From Pirellulales bacterium (GTDB lineage: Bacteria > Planctomycetota > Planctomycetia > Pirellulales > PALSA-1355): 64,000 nt of DNA. Shown here in pieces: positions 2,363-7,531 of this stretch. How positions within the stretch are numbered: the first letter of the stretch is position 1; each line of letters opens with the position of its first letter. The position numbers and the translations under genes were made by a program. The stretch is from NCBI GenBank assembly GCA_963733035.1, contig CAVTBU010000007.1, positions 160,001 through 224,000 on the forward strand, given 5' to 3'. The notes beneath the pieces are model-generated. The model had not been told where the DNA came from. It saw nothing but the letters and a program-made list of their open reading frames with translations, and made no database searches.

Positions 2363-2627
2363 AACGCGTTTGAAATCTCCCGCTTGAAATCGGGCCAGCA
2401 CCTGCGGCATACTCACCCGCGGTCGGATGGCCTGCGACGTGTGGACGAGCAACAAGCCTGGGACCTTGGTTGTCTTGTCTTTGGAACCTGCCCATCCCCG
2501 CCGACACGTTTCGGCGGCACGAGGATTACGGGGTTCGCTTGCGTCCACATGTTCGCCGCTTGGCCGCGCAGATACGCGGCGCCGGGGATCCACGGCGCTG
2601 CAACTTGCGCGGCAGGTCTGGCTGTCT
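2363..2627 (+). repeat. Direct repeat copy 1 (~265 bp): promoter plus 5' half of a candidate structured RNA
   Basis: Near-identical to 4159-4419; the central ~120 nt are identical. Confidence 0.95.
2384..2413 (+). promoter_or_regulatory. Sigma70-type promoter, TTGAAA-N18-CATACT (copy 1)
   Basis: Both hexamers are conserved between the repeat copies while the spacer bases differ. Confidence 0.55.
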
Positions 2628-2629
2628 AT

Positions 2630-3166
2630 TTGGCCTCCCGTGCTCGCGGAATTCGCGGGCCACGCAACCGTCCCAATAAGCCCCGTACCGCTACGCCGAT
2701 CGGCCGTAAGAAGCCGCGGTTTCCACCGCCAGTTGATACGATCCGGCTTACAAATCGACGAGGTCGCACGACACCCCATCCAAATCACGTGGTGTCGGTT
2801 GTAACAGAAGAGGAAGCGGCGCGGTTCCTTCATTCACTGCCCGACACCGCGGTGATATTCTGGGGTCAAAAAATCGGAAAACATCGCGCGGACATAATCA
2901 CGTTTAACCTTCGCACAAAGGTCGTAACTTTTTGGGACGTCAAGTATCGCAGCAGTCCTGTTCGAATTCAGGCATCCAAGACATTTGCGAAGGGCAAGCA
3001 ATCGCTGGAAAATGTCATTGTGCAGGCATACGATGCCGTCCTACTGTCCAGTCTAACGCCAGCCGACAAGGCAAGTGCCACAAAAGCATTGGTCTTGCGT
3101 CGATTTCAAGTTCGTACGCTCGGCGCCGGTGCTGCCAAGAACTCGAGTCTAGGAGGGTCCCCATGA
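2630..3166 (+). CDS. Putative orphan polymorphic-toxin C-terminal domain with a PD-(D/E)XK (restriction endonuclease-like) nuclease fold
   Basis: Motif H-R-A-D-I-I...V-T-F-W-D-V-K-Y-R-S with an upstream helical Glu (EEEAARFL). Basic protein whose stop overlaps the next ATG (ATGA). Start uncertain: TTG 2630, though the frame is open from 2384. Confidence 0.55.
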   Translation: MASRARGIRGPRNRPNKPRTATPIGRKKPRFPPPVDTIRLTNRRGRTTPHPNHVVSVVTEEEAARFLHSLPDTAVIFWGQKIGKHRADIITFNLRTKVVTFWDVKYRSSPVRIQASKTFAKGKQSLENVIVQAYDAVLLSSLTPADKASATKALVLRRFQVRTLGAGAAKNSSLGGSP

Positions 3167-3900
3167 CCTTTGATCCCAAGCGATTACGCAAGGGTTTACA
3201 CGAGTATCTGATTGCCCTGGCCGAGAATGCGAGCCTTGACGAGGCTCGACGTGGGGAATGCATCGGTAGTGTCGGAAACCACCTGTTGCACATCGCCTTG
3301 CAATGCATTTTGGTCGGCGAGTTTGCCATTGCTAAAACTGTTCTGGCGAAAGTGCGTCGGTTTTTGCAGGAAGCAATCGAAAAAGGGGAGCACGATACGC
3401 CCGGATTGCGGTTCGTACTCGACAATTATTCGCTGACGTCTTGGTTGGTCGAAGGGCGTGATGACAAATCGAGTCTCCGCGAGTGCGTCGCACTCCGAGA
3501 GAAATGGTTTCAAGGAAAGGGCAATCTGAACCGAACCGAAATGCAACTCTCGCTGCTGCCGTATTTGCAATCGGGGCAACTCGACACGCTCATGGCGCGC
3601 TACGAAAGTGTCGGACTCACGAAACCCAAGAGCCTGCGACACATCAAGGGGGAGGGTACGATGTGCTACGTGCTCGCACGCCATCGGCTGGGACTTGATT
3701 ACACCGACGACGAAATCTCGCAGGCACTTCAGACCTTTCTGAAACGCTGCATGGAAGATTGGCTGTTCGGTCACTATTGCACCGTCGCCCGCTGGATGAA
3801 AATCGCGCATTGGAAACCCGGCGACGATCCGATCGCCACCGTGCTGCGCTGCTACGACTATCTGCCGGGCCGCAAGCCGCCGAAGTATCCCCCTGGGTAG
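3163..3900 (+). CDS. Putative cognate immunity protein (helical, 245 aa)
   Basis: AGGAGG RBS; ATG 3163 overlaps the toxin stop; MTFDPKRLRK...YDYLPGRKPPKYPPG. Confidence 0.6.
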   Translation: MTFDPKRLRKGLHEYLIALAENASLDEARRGECIGSVGNHLLHIALQCILVGEFAIAKTVLAKVRRFLQEAIEKGEHDTPGLRFVLDNYSLTSWLVEGRDDKSSLRECVALREKWFQGKGNLNRTEMQLSLLPYLQSGQLDTLMARYESVGLTKPKSLRHIKGEGTMCYVLARHRLGLDYTDDEISQALQTFLKRCMEDWLFGHYCTVARWMKIAHWKPGDDPIATVLRCYDYLPGRKPPKYPPG

Positions 3901-4031
3901 ATTCGATCGTCTGGCCCGTCGAATCGCAAAGCGACCTCCTCAAGTGAGAACAAGGAAGCTTGTCACAGGCCGCCAACCAAACCAAATCTTCAGGCGGTCG
4001 GCGATGAGCGTTGTCGACGACGTCTGCCAAT

Positions 4032-4106
4032 CATACCAACCCGAAGCGCGAGCAAGGAAGGACACAGCATACGGAAAAGCCCTCGCTTGCGCTTCGGGTG
4101 AGTATG
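4032..4106. repeat. Planctomycete-type REP-like palindrome pair
   Basis: CATACCAACCCGAAGCGCGAGCAAGG ... CCTCGCTTGCGCTTCGGGTGAGTATG are inverted arms; the minus strand translates as TRSASEG. Confidence 0.75.
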
Positions 4107-4158
4107 GCCGTGGACGCTTTCACCGCGTCTCTGTCGCCGTCGCGATTTCTCCCACAAG

Positions 4159-4419
4159 AACGCGTTTGAAATCTCCGGCTTGAAATCGGGCCAGCACTTG
4201 CCGCATACTCACCCGCGGTCGGATGGCCTGCGATGTGTGGACGAGCAACAAGCCTGGGACCTTGGTTGTCTTGTCTTTGGAACCTGCCCATCCCCGCCGA
4301 CACGTTTCGGCGGCACGAGGATTACGGGGTTCGCTTGCGTCCACATGTTCGCCGCTTGCCGCAATACGACGGCGCCGGGGATCCACGGCGCTGCTCTTGC
4401 GCGGCAGGTCTGGCTGTCT
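4159..4419 (+). repeat. Direct repeat copy 2 (~261 bp)
   Basis: Near-identical to 2363-2627. Confidence 0.95.
4180..4209 (+). promoter_or_regulatory. Sigma70-type promoter, TTGAAA-N18-CATACT (copy 2)
   Basis: Hexamers and spacing; sits directly before a multi-hairpin region that ends in a terminator. Confidence 0.55.
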
Positions 4420-4669
4420 TTGCCGCACGAAGGTTTTTTAGCCTGGCTTGGCGGTGGCGGAAGCCGCCGTCACTTGACGTACTGGTAAAACGAGTGCTTC
4501 GTGCTGCATGCCGCGTGTCGCGCCGCTCGGTCGATGGCCGAGGAGTGACCAACCATTAACCACTTTCAAAGTCCAATCCCGGCTCAACCGAGCACGACAC
4601 GCTTCTGTTTTTAAAAAGCGTCCAACCAAACGCCGCGCGCACCCTTGCGCGCTGGCGTTTGGTTTTTTT
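4215..4669 (+). ncRNA. Candidate ~450-nt multi-domain structured ncRNA of unknown family
   Basis: Promoter upstream and terminator downstream; long stems with G-U pairs; GGAA tetraloop hairpin at 4449-4472; no convincing ORF. Confidence 0.5.
4624..4669 (+). terminator. Intrinsic terminator
   Basis: AACCAAACGCC-GCGCGCA-CCCT-TGCGCGC-T-GGCGTTTGGTT followed by a T-run. Confidence 0.8.
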
Positions 4670-4973
4670 GTTTTCAATTCGTCCTTTGTGCCCTTGGTGG
4701 TTTTTTATCAACATCCTGTTTTTAATTGCTTACAGTTGCCCCTTCGCAGCCTTGGGTTCATTCGGAAGAATCGCGATTCGCGTCCACAGGACCAGGGGCC
4801 GACGCCCGCTGGCCATTCGGGGTCGCCGCTGTGTGGCTTTATTCGTACCTCCTCAGGCCCAGCCCTGACCGACTGGGGACACGCTACTCCCGCTGCGAGA
4901 TTCAGGCACGGCGTATACAATGGTCACCACCTCGATGCGAATCAAAAGAAGCCCTCGGACGTCACGCGCCTTG

Positions 4974-6036
4974 ATGCTCCCCACGCTGCGAATTGGACCA
5001 ATTGAACTCGACTTTCCCGTCGTGCAGGCGGCCCTGTCGGGCTACAGCGATTGGGCGATGCGCGTGATCGCGCGGCGGCTGGGGGCGCCGTATACGCTTT
5101 GCGAGGTGATGCTCGATCAGTTCATCAACGAAGTGACCAAGGGGCGCAAGGCGCGGCGCTATCCTGCGCACCAGCGACGAAGAACATCCGGTCGGCGGGC
5201 AGTTGATGGGGGCCAACCCCGAGGATTTTGCTCCGGCCGCTCGGCACCTGGTCGAGGCCGGCTTCGACGTCGTCGATATCAACTTCGGCTGCCCGGTCAA
5301 AAAGGTGCTCGGCCGACAACGCGGAGGGTTCCTGCTGGGGCAAGTCGACACGGCGCTGGAAATCGTCTCGCGGGTGCGCGAGGCCGTGCCCGACCGCGTG
5401 CCGGTGACCGTCAAGATGCGCCGCGGGATCGACGATTCGGCCGAGAGCCGCGACAAGTTCTTCGAGATCTTCGACGGCGCCTTCGAGCGGGGCGTGGCGG
5501 CCATCACCGTGCACGGCCGTACCGTCAAGCAGCGCTACGTCGGGCCGAGCCGGTGGCAGTTTCTACGCGAAGTGAAACAGCATGCCGGCCAGCGCGCGGT
5601 GTTGGGGAGCGGCGACTTGTTCACGCCGCAAGCATGCCTCGACATGATGCGCGAGACGGGCGTCGACGGCGTAACGGCCGCCCGCGGCGCGATCGGCAAT
5701 CCCTGGATCTTCGCCCAGGCCCGAGCGCTCGCCGCCGGCCAGCCGCTTCCCGCGCCGCCGACGGTCCGCGAGCAGCGCGACGTGATCGCCGAGCACTATC
5801 GACTGAGCGAGGAACTCTACGGCCCCGAAACGAGCGGGCGGCAGATGCGGAAGTTCGGCATCAAGTACTCACAGCTCCATCCCCAGGGCAAACAGGTCCG
5901 CGACGCGTTCGTGAAAGTCGCCCGGCCCGGCGAGTGGCTGACGGTATTGGAACGGTGGTACGCCGCAGACGCTCCCGGCGTGCATCCCTCGGCCGAGGAA
6001 GAGCAATTGATGAATTGCAGCGAGTCGGCGGCGTAG
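4974..6036 (+). CDS. dusB: tRNA-dihydrouridine synthase (DusB-like), split by a +1 indel near 5163
   Basis: QAALSGYSD at the N-terminus; DINFGCP, VTVKMRRG, VHGRT, GSGDL and ARGAIGNPWIF in the second frame. Confidence 0.85.
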
Positions 6037-6054: not shown

Positions 6055-7209
6055 TTAGCCGGGAGGCATCGCCGACCGCGTGCCGCTCGCCGCGGAATGG
6101 AGCGCCGCCGCGATTTCGGTCAGGACCTCGGGATCGTCTTCCCGCGGCAAGCGGTGCTCAATCGCCGCACGAGTCGCATCAGAAGCGAATTGACCAAGCG
6201 CCCAGGCGCAAGCTCCGCGCACCAGCGGCTCGTTGTCGCTGAGTCCGCGGATAAGTGCGGGAATTGCTTCGGTCGCCCGCTGGTTGCCCAGCACGATGGC
6301 CGCATTGCGCAGGATGCCGCGCCGCTTGGGGCGCCACAGCGGCGTGCGACGGAACCGAGCCTTGAAGCTGGCGTCATCCAAATCGAACAGGGCAATCAAG
6401 TCGAGCGTGGTCGCTCCGTCGCGCGGCTCGAGCGACGGCTCGTCGGTCGTCACCGGCTTATGATTCCAAGGGCAAACATCTTGGCAAACGTCGCAGCCAA
6501 ACACCCAATCCTGCATACCCGCGCGCAGTTCCGGCGGGATGGATTCGCGCCGCTCGATCGTCAGGTAACTGATGCACTTGCGGGCATCGAGCACGTACGG
6601 CTGGACGAAAGCCTCGGTGGGGCAGGCGTCGAGACAGGCCGTGCACGTGCCGCAGTGATCGGATTCGCGTGCATCGTCCGGCGGAAGTTCCAAATCGGTG
6701 AGCAGCGCCGCCAGGAAAAACCAACTGCCGGATGGCTTGTTCAGCAAAAGCGTGTTCTTGCCGATCCAGCCCAGCCCGGCCAGTTGCGCAAACTCGCGTT
6801 CCAACAGCGGTGCCGTGTCGACCACCGTTCGCGCCGACGCGGTCGGAGCGCGAGCGAGCAGAAACAGTTCCAGGCGTCGCAAACGCTCGCGGATCAAATC
6901 GTGATAGTCGTCTCCCCAGGCATACCGGGCCACGCGGCCGTGGCCCGGTTGAGGAGGCGCCGGCTCACGGGTACGATAAGGAAACGCAAGCACGAGCAGG
7001 CTGCGAACGCCGTCGAGCACATGCCGCGGATGCGAGTAGGCCTCGGCCCGATTCGGCAGATAGTGCATCGTGCCCGCGTAACCGGCGGCCAGCCACTCGG
7101 CAAAGCGATCGATGCCTGCGGGCGTGACGGCCGCGCACACGCCGGAGAGCGAAAAGCCCAGCCGTCGGGCTTCGTCTTTTAATGCGGCGGTGAGTTGTCT
7201 GTTGTCCAT
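6055..7209 (-). CDS. queG: tRNA epoxyqueuosine(34) reductase QueG with C-terminal HEAT repeats
   Basis: ARYAWGDDYH, VDTAPLLERE, GWIGKN, CGTCTACLDACPT, GCDVCQDVCPWN. Confidence 0.93.
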   Translation of the reverse strand: MDNRQLTAALKDEARRLGFSLSGVCAAVTPAGIDRFAEWLAAGYAGTMHYLPNRAEAYSHPRHVLDGVRSLLVLAFPYRTREPAPPQPGHGRVARYAWGDDYHDLIRERLRRLELFLLARAPTASARTVVDTAPLLEREFAQLAGLGWIGKNTLLLNKPSGSWFFLAALLTDLELPPDDARESDHCGTCTACLDACPTEAFVQPYVLDARKCISYLTIERRESIPPELRAGMQDWVFGCDVCQDVCPWNHKPVTTDEPSLEPRDGATTLDLIALFDLDDASFKARFRRTPLWRPKRRGILRNAAIVLGNQRATEAIPALIRGLSDNEPLVRGACAWALGQFASDATRAAIEHRLPREDDPEVLTEIAAALHSAASGTRSAMPPG

Positions 7210-7261
7210 GTGGTCACAAACGAAAACCTGACTGGTCTCGCCCGAGCGATCGCCCCCTCTG

Positions 7262-7531
7262 ATGTTTACACCAAAATGCCTGCACCTGCTCGCCGCCGCC
7301 CTGCTGGGGAGCGTGCTGTTTGTCGGCTGCGAGAAGCCCTTGGACTCGCCGGAGTACGGCGAGCTGATCCAGAAGATACCGCCGGAGTTTGACCGGCCGT
7401 TTCCGCTGCCTGAACTGGACCAGCCGAGCCCCTCGCCGCTCGCCGGCCCCGCCGAAGCCCCAACCGACCCGGCTCCGCCCGAAGCCGGCCCCGCCCAGGC
7501 GGAGACGCAGGACAAGGAAAGCCATAAATAG
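7262..7531 (+). CDS. Small Pro-rich lipoprotein
   Basis: Lipobox LFVGC after a hydrophobic stretch. Confidence 0.6.
   Translation: MFTPKCLHLLAAALLGSVLFVGCEKPLDSPEYGELIQKIPPEFDRPFPLPELDQPSPSPLAGPAEAPTDPAPPEAGPAQAETQDKESHK

Follow-up and report, generated by a model that had tools for sequence, protein, structure and literature searches.

The interval from 4180 to 4669 on the + strand of the 64,000-nucleotide stretch of Pirellulales DNA analysed here (the window) is probably one gene of a dispersed, multicopy family of large structured noncoding RNAs (ncRNAs) which, measured against Rfam, would be undescribed. An earlier note on this DNA had proposed at this place a + strand ncRNA gene of about 450 nt, with its own promoter and terminator and perhaps undescribed. 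The proposal is supported: a scan of the whole window gave no Rfam match at gathering thresholds, and a search for homologs found them to covary in the 3′ domain. At the level of sequence comparison, the unit displays the conserved structure and the covariation among homologs that are expected of a structured ncRNA.

Copies and relatives of the unit

Seven full copies, 97–100% identical, and one 5′ fragment make up subfamily 1 in the genome (G000). Three diverged subfamilies, with 4, 3 and 1 copies, have the promoter type, the 5′ segment and the 3′ domain in common with it, and differ in the interior. The total is about 15 dispersed copies in four subfamilies, and a covariance model of the 3′ domain (R1) returns 15 matches in the genome. 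Every copy is self-contained, with the conserved promoter at its left edge and stem plus T-run terminators at its right edge; the RNA would be about 400–460 nt long in this genome and 600–630 nt in sister species. The left border falls on the identical base in all eight subfamily-1 copies, the right border lies at three positions among the seven full ones, and near-identical copies differ by 1-, 2- and 4-nt indels. Contigs in three of four soil metagenome DNA runs break exactly at 4178, which is the left repeat border. A search of sequencing runs found the sequence in 13 DNA runs, from soil, wetland, marsh and aquaculture, at shares of 0.36 or less, and in no RNA run.

The repeat nature of the unit is absent from the earlier note, and a partial second copy lies within the same window. 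This truncated copy (2363–2627, + strand) comprises the promoter, placed at 2384–2413 by a promoter scan, and the first ~220 nt of the RNA (domains A and B and helix P1, see below), with 95–98% identity. It is fused to unrelated sequence leading into two ORFs, at about 2768–3166 and 3160–3900, for which no Pfam or NCBIfam match was found. Since the family is dispersed and multicopy, a mobile element and a cis-acting cassette have to be weighed as rival readings.

A BLAST-level search of 40 relatives gave no match outside G000; sister species were reached by covariance models only. Model R1 has members in the sister species G002 (5) and G003 (3), and model R2 adds G211, G005 and G023, which represent another genus of the same Pirellulales family and have the same layout. 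Across the two genera the promoter, the 5′ segment and the 3′ domain are kept and the interior diverges. The covariance-model search found no member in 138 genomes from other families of the order, and a strict 3′-domain pattern, which recovers 15 of 15 copies, is without a match in 400 other genomes of the order. When genome contigs were scanned with the pattern, 18 loci were obtained, seven in two Pirellulales MAGs and 11 in unrelated GC-rich taxa; the latter are taken as chance. Among 11 metagenome loci, five are family members and six have no match to model R2. Phage and plasmid collections gave no matches. Its range is thereby confined to a single lineage within the Pirellulales, a small group of planctomycetes from soil and wetland.

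One copy in G002 (L056) has the same flanking genes, in the same orientation, as the subfamily-2 copy at C7:665690–666130 of G000, and the two are of different sequence types. A syntenic locus occupied by different sequence types is the pattern expected from concerted evolution, and it may be that gene conversion keeps the copies alike.

Signals, domains and conserved structure

The promoter claimed for the unit is borne out by a promoter scan. At 4180–4209 (+ strand), a −35 TTGAAA (4180–4185) and a −10 CATACT (4204–4209) flank an 18-nt spacer with a conserved TCGGGCCAGCAC, and 9 of the 12 consensus positions match. Directly upstream, at 4166–4179 (+ strand), the alignment of eight copies with their flanks has a promoter-proximal, A/T-rich, GAAWTCTC-like segment, weakly conserved between copies, inside which a second TTGAAA begins at 4166. 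In another repeat family, too, the same promoter motif has a GAATTC-like segment in front of it. An 18-mer of the promoter is common to the start of every copy of subfamilies 1–3, and the 18-nt motif has 30 genome matches at two or fewer mismatches, against 0–2 for 11 permuted or reversed controls. The motif, TTGAAATCGGGCCAGCAC, occurs at roughly 30 sites in the genome. This promoter type also heads unrelated units, and Rfam has nothing at 19 other motif-bearing loci. The idea of a tRNA or stable-RNA promoter was rejected, a tRNA being found within 600 nt at only one locus (2 of 57 motif hits). The shared motif points to an undescribed class of promoter or regulator site in these bacteria.

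At the other end, the claimed T-tailed terminator is present as an 18-bp hairpin (4624–4664) and then T7 (4663–4669), and it is absent from the output of a simple terminator scan. It closes a segment (4603–4669, + strand; copy alignment and inverted repeat I4) that contains a T-run, a small hairpin and the terminator hairpin, and on this side the shortest repeat unit ends at 4669. A downstream extension (4670–4838, + strand) reaches to about 4750 in four of seven copies and as far as about 4838 in the present copy and the C8 copy. A REP-like TTTGTGCCCTTGGTGG motif lies in it, a comparable palindrome is found after the subfamily-2 copies, and the extension is probably outside the RNA.

Judging by the promoter, the RNA would start near 4215. 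In the minimum-energy fold its 5′ strand at 4215–4228 (+ strand; GCGGU, GGAUGGCC) forms a long-range helix, P1, with a 3′ strand at 4412–4426 (+ strand; GGCUGUCU, GCCGC), and all subfamilies, as well as genus g3, have kept a 5′ segment GUCnGGUGGCC. The pairing register of P1 across subfamilies, like the homology of domains A to C, is tentative and follows our reading of the alignments. Domain A (4230–4352, + strand) is in the minimum-energy fold a rod of about 120 nt, made of GCGA/UCGC, UGUGUGGACG/CGUCCACAUG, GGACCUUG/CGGGGUUC and an apical CCGCCGA/UCGGCGG. The rod had been described from TGTGGACG at 4236 with CGTCCACA at 4338, GAACC at 4280 with GGTTC at 4328, and an apical CCGCCGA at 4294 with TCGGCGG at 4307, all of which occur at these positions or within a few bases of them. 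It is specific to subfamily 1, and the other subfamilies have a different, branched sequence at this place.

Domain B (4354–4409, + strand; copy alignment and minimum-energy fold) is a stem GCUUGCCGC/GCGGCAGGU around a hairpin CGGCGCCG/CGGCGCUG (4370–4393), to which the previously noticed GCGCCG (4372) and CGGCGC (4386), found there or within a few bases, correspond in position. It is the segment with the indel differences among near-identical copies, and its position matches that of a module in other subfamilies and in the sister species, in which CUCC and GGGAG enclose a hairpin. The GCGGCA (4401) and TGCCGC (4421) of another proposed hairpin do exist, but the hairpin is not in the minimum-energy fold, in which GCGGCAGGU pairs upstream with GCUUGCCGC. 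Domain C (4425–4504, + strand; folds and inverted repeat I3) has a closing stem GCACGAAG/CUUCGUGC around a 10-bp hairpin with a GGAA cap. The capped hairpin lies where it had been reported (4449–4472). The motifs of the proposed stem GCACGAAG (4425)/CTTCGTGC (4497) are likewise there, but the stem forms in only one of two near-equal folds. In other subfamilies, domain C-like stems of other sequence were read by eye (GUCUGAG/CUCAGAC and GUUUGAG/CUCAAAU), as was a further equivalent, CUCAGGCG/CGCCUGAG around a GAAA-capped hairpin.

The conserved 3′ domain (4513–4602, + strand), as given by models R1 and R2, has an outer stem GCGUGUCG/CGACACGC, an inner GCUCGGU/ACCGAGC, then GA/UC and CCG-n-GGA/UCC-CGG, and an A/C-rich apex that contains YUAAC. 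Stems proposed here before, GCGTGTCG (4513) with CGACACGC (4595) and GCTCGGT (4525) with ACCGAGC (4587), are present at or near these positions, and most of the stems in the earlier note are contained in the minimum-energy fold.

The 3′ domain is the only well-supported domain. In an alignment of 19 sequences, which come from few related genomes and are non-independent, which leave out the sources L049, L052 and L053, and which were fitted to the model's own structure so that the result leans towards that structure, 91.2% of cells are paired, against 79.5 ± 1.0 in shuffled alignments (0 of 500 as high) and 33–46% in slid ones. In the same alignment, both partners have changed in 13 of 25 pairs (1 of 500 shuffles), and in helix 2 this holds for 10 of 12. 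The shape of the domain recurs in eight independent minimum-energy folds. A full-length alignment of seven sister-type sequences has 133 predicted pairs, 13 of them with compensatory change. The cross-subfamily alignment was made by plain MAFFT. Full-length RNAalifold on another, mixed alignment, in which subfamily 1 predominated, produced a confused consensus. Within subfamily 1, all five substitutions at paired positions outside the indel segment are C/U opposite G and keep the pairing; such changes occur in domain A at 4234, 4341 and 4346 and in the terminator at 4636.

The + strand was claimed from the start, and we retain it because of the fold z-scores, the U–G pairs, the C/U-opposite-G substitutions, and a promoter and terminator orientation kept in every copy. 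The + strand fold of 4215–4672 has −212.6 kcal/mol, against −179.9 ± 5.6 for shuffled sequences (n = 100; z −5.83, 0 of 100 as good), and for the − strand z is −2.88, with 1 of 100 shuffles as good. The U–G pairs in the covariation table are pairs that exist only in the + strand RNA.

Mobility, cis action and other explanations

The most serious rival takes the unit for non-autonomous mobile DNA, or for a selfish RNA gene, that a host enzyme such as a Y1 transposase (IS200/RAYT-type) moves in trans; the folds, as hairpins of single-strand DNA or RNA, would then serve mobility and no function of the cell. We consider this unlikely. Several points speak for it. Seven copies of 97–100% identity lie in unrelated places with a left border that is the same to the base. 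Presence differs between species: four of five sister-genome sites are empty in G000, and G001 and G003 lack the unit at the site of the present copy; for all four G000 copies examined for it, the matching flank in sister genomes carries no RNA, and synteny breaks at two of three further ones. Y1_Tnp has nine matches in the genome, including one at 160 nt from the C8 copy, and REP-like motifs adjoin several copies. Elements of the IS200/IS605 type have neither inverted repeats nor target duplications but possess subterminal hairpins, and a strong hairpin lies 5 nt from the right end of the unit. The common left border in eight copies and the empty matching flanks of sister genomes are points that would also fit active mobility. 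A check against the IS200/IS605 type (PATE) gave a mixed picture, with Y1_Tnp genes in the genome, a strong hairpin at the right end and no clear one at the left, where the flanks share a loose GAAWTCTC-like motif that is also of the promoter type.

Against mobility, the three different right borders among seven copies are unlike precise transposition, and the left border falls together with the upstream limit of a promoter type that heads unrelated units too. Compensatory change, and G–U pairs possible in the + strand RNA only, extend over four subfamilies, two species and a second genus, and one locus is syntenic across species. An IS200-like gene is nearby in one of 14 copies, and 13 of 14 have no transposase within 1.5 kb. 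No contig joins across an empty site in four metagenome DNA runs, and the lack of phage or plasmid matches also counts against mobility. No constant neighbouring gene was found among the copies. In an alignment of filled and empty sites (G003 with G000), the intergenic sequence is too diverged to show borders. A MITE or classical IS-derived element was rejected, as no inverted repeat joins the ends 4178 and 4669 and eight aligned copies have no flank duplication. Inverted repeat I2 (4140–4152/4764–4776) is taken as chance because its left arm lies outside the region in common with the C8 copy.

An improbable alternative is a cis-acting cassette, that is, a portable strong promoter with a long structured leader, in which the 3′ domain and T-runs are a conditional terminator and unrelated downstream genes receive a common signal. 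For 13 of 15 copies (one is opposite, one unclear), the unit and the next long downstream ORF share a strand by a crude ORF calling (stop-to-stop frames of at least 110 codons), a crudeness that itself weakens the point. The same holds for all eight downstream genes with Pfam support (Dus, P450, class I aaRS, esterase, PTS_EIIA/HTH, Laminin_G_3, DNA methylase, AAA), and the co-orientation would also fit a cis-acting role. The truncated copy at 2363–2627 is fused directly to a two-ORF cassette, and CUCGG at 4526–4530 can, as read from the sequence, pair either with a nearby CCGAG (4538–4542) or with a distal one (4588–4592), which resembles a choice between antiterminator and terminator. Against this, two successive terminators end the unit, the second being the 18-bp hairpin with T7, and 100–300 nt separate the unit from the next start codon. 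The dus gene keeps its own −10-like box (TACAAT), as it does in sister genomes without the unit. Many copies sit between divergent genes, so that a co-oriented gene follows whichever way the unit points, and this explains part of the bias. The downstream genes have no common function, and no riboswitch or leader family is matched. A riboswitch or attenuating leader was rejected on the unrelated functions of these genes and on the two terminators 100–300 nt before the next gene, although the co-orientation in 13 of 15 copies may still reflect some role in cis.

A very improbable reading makes the unit repeated intergenic DNA that has no function as RNA, whose folds are by-products of GC-rich palindromes and whose promoter- and terminator-like ends are fortuitous. 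GC-rich genomes do give many stable predicted folds, the − strand also has z −2.88, and the range is narrow (none of 138 genomes from the order's other families). However, the + strand z of −5.83, the compensatory changes in 13 of 25 pairs with strand-specific U–G pairs, the retention of pairing by five of five stem substitutions, and the persistence of promoter, 5′ segment and 3′ domain across two genera despite a diverging interior all argue against this reading. That the unit encodes a small protein is hardly credible: open + strand frames of 102 and 108 codons exist (4180–4488 and 4233–4559), but near-identical copies have 1-, 2- and 4-nt indels inside them, subfamilies 2–4 and the sister copies, with great differences in sequence and length, do not have them, no ORF of the element has a Pfam match, and one frame would begin at the −35 box itself. 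A small ORF in the 3′ domain was also rejected, the frames, in our reading, not being conserved between subfamilies.

Proposed role and comparison with known RNAs

If the unit is an RNA gene, as we favour, its RNA would be made at a high level from a strong promoter type used genome-wide, and it would act in trans as a folded molecule, most likely with a protein partner. It is tempting to propose that the constant 3′ domain, with its CCG-n-GGA/UCC-CGG core and YUAAC loop, is a common handle, and that the variable 5′ two-thirds give each subfamily its own specificity. The near-identity within subfamilies could be due to gene conversion together with occasional duplication to new intergenic sites, and we do not ascribe it to a dedicated transposase. 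More tentatively, with somewhat less than even confidence, we propose a new class of large ornate RNA that is a gene family: about 15 chromosomal copies in which a 3′ handle and a 5′ anchor stay constant around an interior that evolves fast. Gene conversion would homogenise the copies, and new intergenic sites would receive them as whole promoter-to-terminator units.

To our knowledge, very few classes of large bacterial ncRNA are known, and those studied so far are ribozymes, parts of ribonucleoproteins or self-assembling particles. The present family would add an RNA of 400–630 nt with a conserved long-range architecture, from a poorly studied phylum. Many copies and diverged subfamilies in one cell offer natural variation for structure modelling and hint at a modular function. 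They also raise the question of how a complete promoter-to-terminator gene spreads and stays 97–100% identical without recognisable transposon ends. Were the variable interior to set the specificity for a target or partner, free-living planctomycetes would possess a modular RNA system, with a constant protein-binding and an exchangeable specificity module, for which the described large ncRNAs have no counterpart.

The earlier note saw no hallmark of tmRNA, RNase P, SRP, canonical 6S or a group II intron, and no match at gathering thresholds was obtained with Rfam 15, whose 4227 models include RNase P, tmRNA, SRP, 6S, group I and II introns, riboswitches and OLE, ROOL, GOLLD and HEARO. At E ≤ 10 only five sub-threshold chance matches to eukaryotic miRNA or snRNA families were obtained; the best in 3900–4950 scores 18.6 bits against a cut-off of 70, for a eukaryotic miRNA family. 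Eight homologous loci gave no match at E ≤ 1. The entries listed by a full-text literature search include none on an RNA of this kind in Planctomycetes. A motif table (PMC2864571) has 'Rhodopirellula-1', to which it assigns no Rfam accession, among motifs that may be cis-regulatory. A CsrA sponge was rejected as well, the eight GGA motifs counted by eye in 458 nt being about the chance number.

RNase P RNA is normally a single essential copy per genome. Its canonical gene is found elsewhere (C5:577748–578166, 267 bits), the unit has no RF00010 match, and this identity was rejected. 6S RNA is a rod of about 180 nt with a central bubble, conserved among relatives, which the imperfect ~120-nt rod of subfamily 1 (4230–4352) resembles. 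It was set aside since the unit has no RF00013 match and the rod is not conserved in subfamilies 2–4; no RF00013 match occurs anywhere in the genome either, but little weight attaches to this, since the model matched in no more than 5 of 14 control genomes. HEARO RNA, the ω-RNA of IscB, is likewise a large structured ncRNA that came to notice as a repeat and has many copies scattered over a genome. It was rejected, as there is no Rfam match and no HNH, RuvC or OrfB domain (Pfam) among 53 flanking frames of 14 copies. Moreover, with its own promoter inside and a constant 5′ end of the RNA, the unit would not derive a guide from its flank, unlike HEARO.

With REP/BIME, MITE and PATE elements, the unit has in common dispersed, near-identical intergenic copies, adjoining REP-like motifs and Y1 transposase genes in the genome. 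It differs from them in its 490-nt length, the lack of terminal inverted repeats, the variable right border, its own promoter and terminators, and a structure kept by compensatory and G–U-specific changes across subfamilies and genera. Qrr, Yfr2 and LhrC are multicopy families of bacterial sRNA genes, and they too are paralogous intergenic RNA genes, each with its own promoter and terminator and with a common conserved module. The unit, however, is 3–5 times larger and far more structured, its copies within a subfamily are 97–100% identical, and no seed-like single-stranded stretch proved to be conserved in all homologs.

OLE, ROOL, GOLLD and raiA are large 'ornate' bacterial ncRNAs, mostly single-copy or phage-borne. 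The present family differs from them in having about 15 chromosomal copies in four subfamilies, no Rfam 15 match and no phage or plasmid relative among those searched. It is nevertheless these RNAs that it resembles in its size of 400–630 nt, its several domains, its GNRA-type caps and long-range helices, its narrow range of taxa and its lack of an obvious function.

Fold and strand of the window unit

The earlier note described the candidate RNA gene at 4180-4669 as a folded unit with its own promoter and terminator, and apart from two small corrections on stems this observation is confirmed: all the stems it named are present, within a few bases at most of where they had been placed. A promoter scan finds the claimed promoter as a sigma-70-like TTGAAA-18 nt-CATACT (4180-4209), and the T-tailed terminator is an 18-bp hairpin (4624-4664) followed by seven T at the unit end. 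The sequences of the hairpin GCGGCA/TGCCGC exist, but GCGGCA (4401) takes an upstream partner rather than TGCCGC (4421) in the minimum-energy fold; those of the stem GCACGAAG/CTTCGTGC are present too, with the stem formed in one of two near-equal folds. As + strand RNA, 4215-4672 folds at -212.6 kcal/mol versus -179.9 ± 5.6 for shuffles (z -5.83), and 0 of 100 dinucleotide shuffles reach the native energy; the - strand of the same interval gives a z of -2.88. The + strand frames of the unit have no Pfam match and are disrupted among copies, in the flanked alignment, by indels of 1, 2 and 4 nt.

Covariation bears on the 3′ domain (4513-4602), on which two covariance models, R1 and R2, were built. 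Pairs were counted in 19 sequences of this domain aligned to R2, leaving out three sources with reverse-strand artefacts. In this alignment, which was fitted to the R2 structure and is hence biased towards it, 13 of 25 pairs are altered on both sides, a count reached by 1 of 500 shuffles, and standard pairs occupy 91.2% of cells versus 79.5 ± 1.0 for 500 shuffles, none of which attains the native value, falling to 33-46% when the partners are slid. Ten of the 12 pairs of the long inner helix are altered on both sides. The choice of the + strand stands as well, since several pairs switch between U-G and U-A or C-G, a pattern compatible with + strand RNA alone. All eight representatives, each folded independently, take the same 3′-domain shape. 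Among seven full-length sequences of the sister-genome type, 13 of 133 predicted pairs show compensatory change, and the predicted pairs include long-range helices linking the 3′ tail to the middle of the RNA. Within subfamily 1 (the window unit and its near-identical copies), five single-base differences fall at paired positions outside the indel-rich segment, and all are C/U opposite G.

Copies, subfamilies and relatives

Near-identical translations at 2384 and 4180 in the ORF list, together with a repeat search, reveal two copies in the window. The source genome (G000; 6.6 Mb, 10 contigs) holds seven full copies that are 97-100% identical, three on contig C5 and one each on C4, C7, C8 and C9, and one 5′ fragment (window 2363-2627). 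Weaker matches lead to three diverged subfamilies of 4, 3 and 1 copies. All four subfamilies share the promoter type (TTGAAATCGGGCCAGCAC, then a yAnAnT -10 box), a 5′ segment GUCnGGUGGCC and the 3′ domain of about 90 nt, and mostly differ in the interior. By eye, domains B (4354-4409) and C (4425-4504) appear to have position-equivalent counterparts of unrelated sequence in the other subfamilies: for B a stem enclosing a hairpin, for C a closing stem around a hairpin with a GNRA-type cap.

The 18-mer TTGAAATCGGGCCAGCAC (window 4180-4197 and 2384-2401) has 30 matches in the source genome at up to 2 mismatches, versus 0-2 for eleven permuted or reversed controls. Fifteen of these head the RNA family and the rest head other units; a tRNA follows the motif at one locus only, and 19 other motif-bearing loci have no Rfam match. 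Every occurrence is placed as in a promoter: a yAnAnT box follows after 6-7 nt and an A-rich stretch comes before. The conserved spacer suggests an unusual class of promoter or the site of a regulator. Among the other units headed by the motif is a second repeat family, likewise dispersed, of at least 8 copies of about 250 nt, which has the variant TATCAATCGGGCCAGCAC...TAGCCT at its head (examples, from loci L099-L105: C5:1448856, C5:1048689, C3:10472, C6:874900, C10:162835). About 297 nt downstream another motif copy precedes variable sequence, once a tRNA-Arg; this family has no Rfam match.

BLAST gives no match in 40 relatives. R1 detects copies in two members of the same genus, G002 (5) and G003 (3), and none in their sister G001 or in 57 further genomes. 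The sister copies, 600-630 nt long, have a promoter of the same kind (TTGAAATCTTGCCACCC...CAGACT) at the start and the same 3′ domain, with a conserved tail, at the end. One of them, L052 (G003:C8), carries a palindromic insertion of about 150 nt mid-RNA that is absent from its ortholog L053 (G002:C290). R2 adds one clear copy in G211, from another genus of the family, in the usual order (promoter, AGUCGGUGGGCCAG, 3′ domain, CCAAAUUUUUAU), and weak matches in G005 and G023 of that same genus; with stricter filters it finds none in 138 genomes from other families of the order. A strict 3′-domain pattern has 15 sites in the source genome, none across 400 further genomes of the order and, in public records, matches in two 'Pirellulales bacterium' MAGs and 11 in unrelated GC-rich taxa, the latter taken as chance. 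Of 11 metagenome loci, five belong to the family.

Sites, borders and neighbours

The likeness of all eight subfamily 1 copies begins, in the flanked alignment, at one common base immediately before the -35 box, upstream of which lies a loosely similar GAAWTCTC-like stretch. The right border varies: three copies stop at the T-run (4669), two extend to about 4750 and the remaining two, in the window and on C8, to about 4838. REP-like motifs (TTTGTGCCCTTGGTGG; gtgccttggtgg...ccaccaaggcac) lie just 3′ of several copies (window 4670-4750, and downstream of C8:215583 and C7:665726). Soil metagenome contigs stop exactly at the left repeat border (4178) in three of four runs, one loose end there matches the flank of the C8 copy, and no contig in the four runs spans the unit.

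New copies do arise at new sites. The window site holds no unit in G001 or G003, and the source genome is empty at four of the five sister sites examined. The unit ends carry no terminal inverted repeats, and no target duplication is seen in the flanked alignment of the eight copies; a Y1 transposase gene (IS200-like) lies by the C8 copy only among 14, 160 nt upstream and divergent, out of 9 Y1_Tnp matches (IS200/RAYT-like) in the genome. The G002 copy L056 has the same flanking genes and orientation as the subfamily 2 copy at C7:665690-666130, and therefore at least one locus is older than the species split. At three further copies of the source genome the matching flank in sister genomes carries no such RNA, and two of the three show broken synteny. 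The C7 copy is nearly identical to three other copies of its own genome, unlike its positional ortholog L056; an old locus with such genome-specific sequence reads as a signature of concerted evolution, and the copies would be kept alike by gene conversion. In a separate locus (L065, C5:2208265-2211385), segments of about 115 nt (1739-1853, 2666-2783, 3011-3121) downstream of the subfamily 4 copy are 84-89% identical to many stretches of G003, several of them at the ends of contigs, and are probably another repeat or an IS end.

That the unit is a mobile element seems unlikely, and a cis-acting promoter or leader cassette is less probable still. In favour of the cassette, the next long downstream frame is co-oriented in 13 of 15 copies, and in all 8 whose downstream gene has Pfam support, a bias due in part to many copies sitting in divergent intergenic regions. 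The flanking genes of 14 copies are mutually unrelated (among them P450, class I aminoacyl-tRNA synthetase, esterase, Mur ligase, polyphosphate kinase, DNA methylase, AAA ATPase).

Around the window unit, two overlapping ORFs (2768-3166 and 3160-3900, ATGA junction) lie 3′ of the truncated copy; neither Pfam nor NCBIfam matches them. Paralogs of the second stand in tandem directly upstream of dus, the tRNA-dihydrouridine synthase gene, in sister genomes (five in G001, period about 790 bp); at the window site of G001 and G003 this array abuts dus with 110-130 nt between. A resemblance of the two ORFs to a toxin C-terminal module with an immunity-gene array is a guess only. In the window, dus (4975-6036; true start ATG at 4975, MLPTLRIG, as in sister genomes) falls into two frames because of a 1-nt insertion near 5162 that its G003 ortholog lacks; this is an indel of the assembly or else a frameshift specific to the strain. 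Because otherwise identical metagenome contigs lack this insertion, single-base indels in the source genome, including some among the RNA copies, may be errors. An epoxyqueuosine reductase gene (QueG-type, HEAT-repeat tail; 6055-7515, - strand) adjoins dus, which places two tRNA-modification genes side by side.

The family among known RNAs

We propose that transcription would start from a strong, shared promoter type and yield an RNA with a constant 3′ module and 5′ anchor around a variable interior. Such an RNA may act in trans, its 3′ domain probably bound by a protein partner. The suggestion that it might be undescribed is supported by Rfam 15, which has no match in the window at gathering thresholds; at E ≤ 10 the unit region draws only five, far sub-threshold and from eukaryotic families, and at E ≤ 1 eight homologous loci draw none. 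Phage and plasmid collections give no blastn match to the unit, and the parts of the literature consulted hold no relevant account of such an RNA. The canonical RNase P RNA gene sits elsewhere in the genome; the 6S model matches nowhere in it, but is insensitive. Set beside these known families, the unit and its relatives are best supported as undescribed large structured ncRNA genes.
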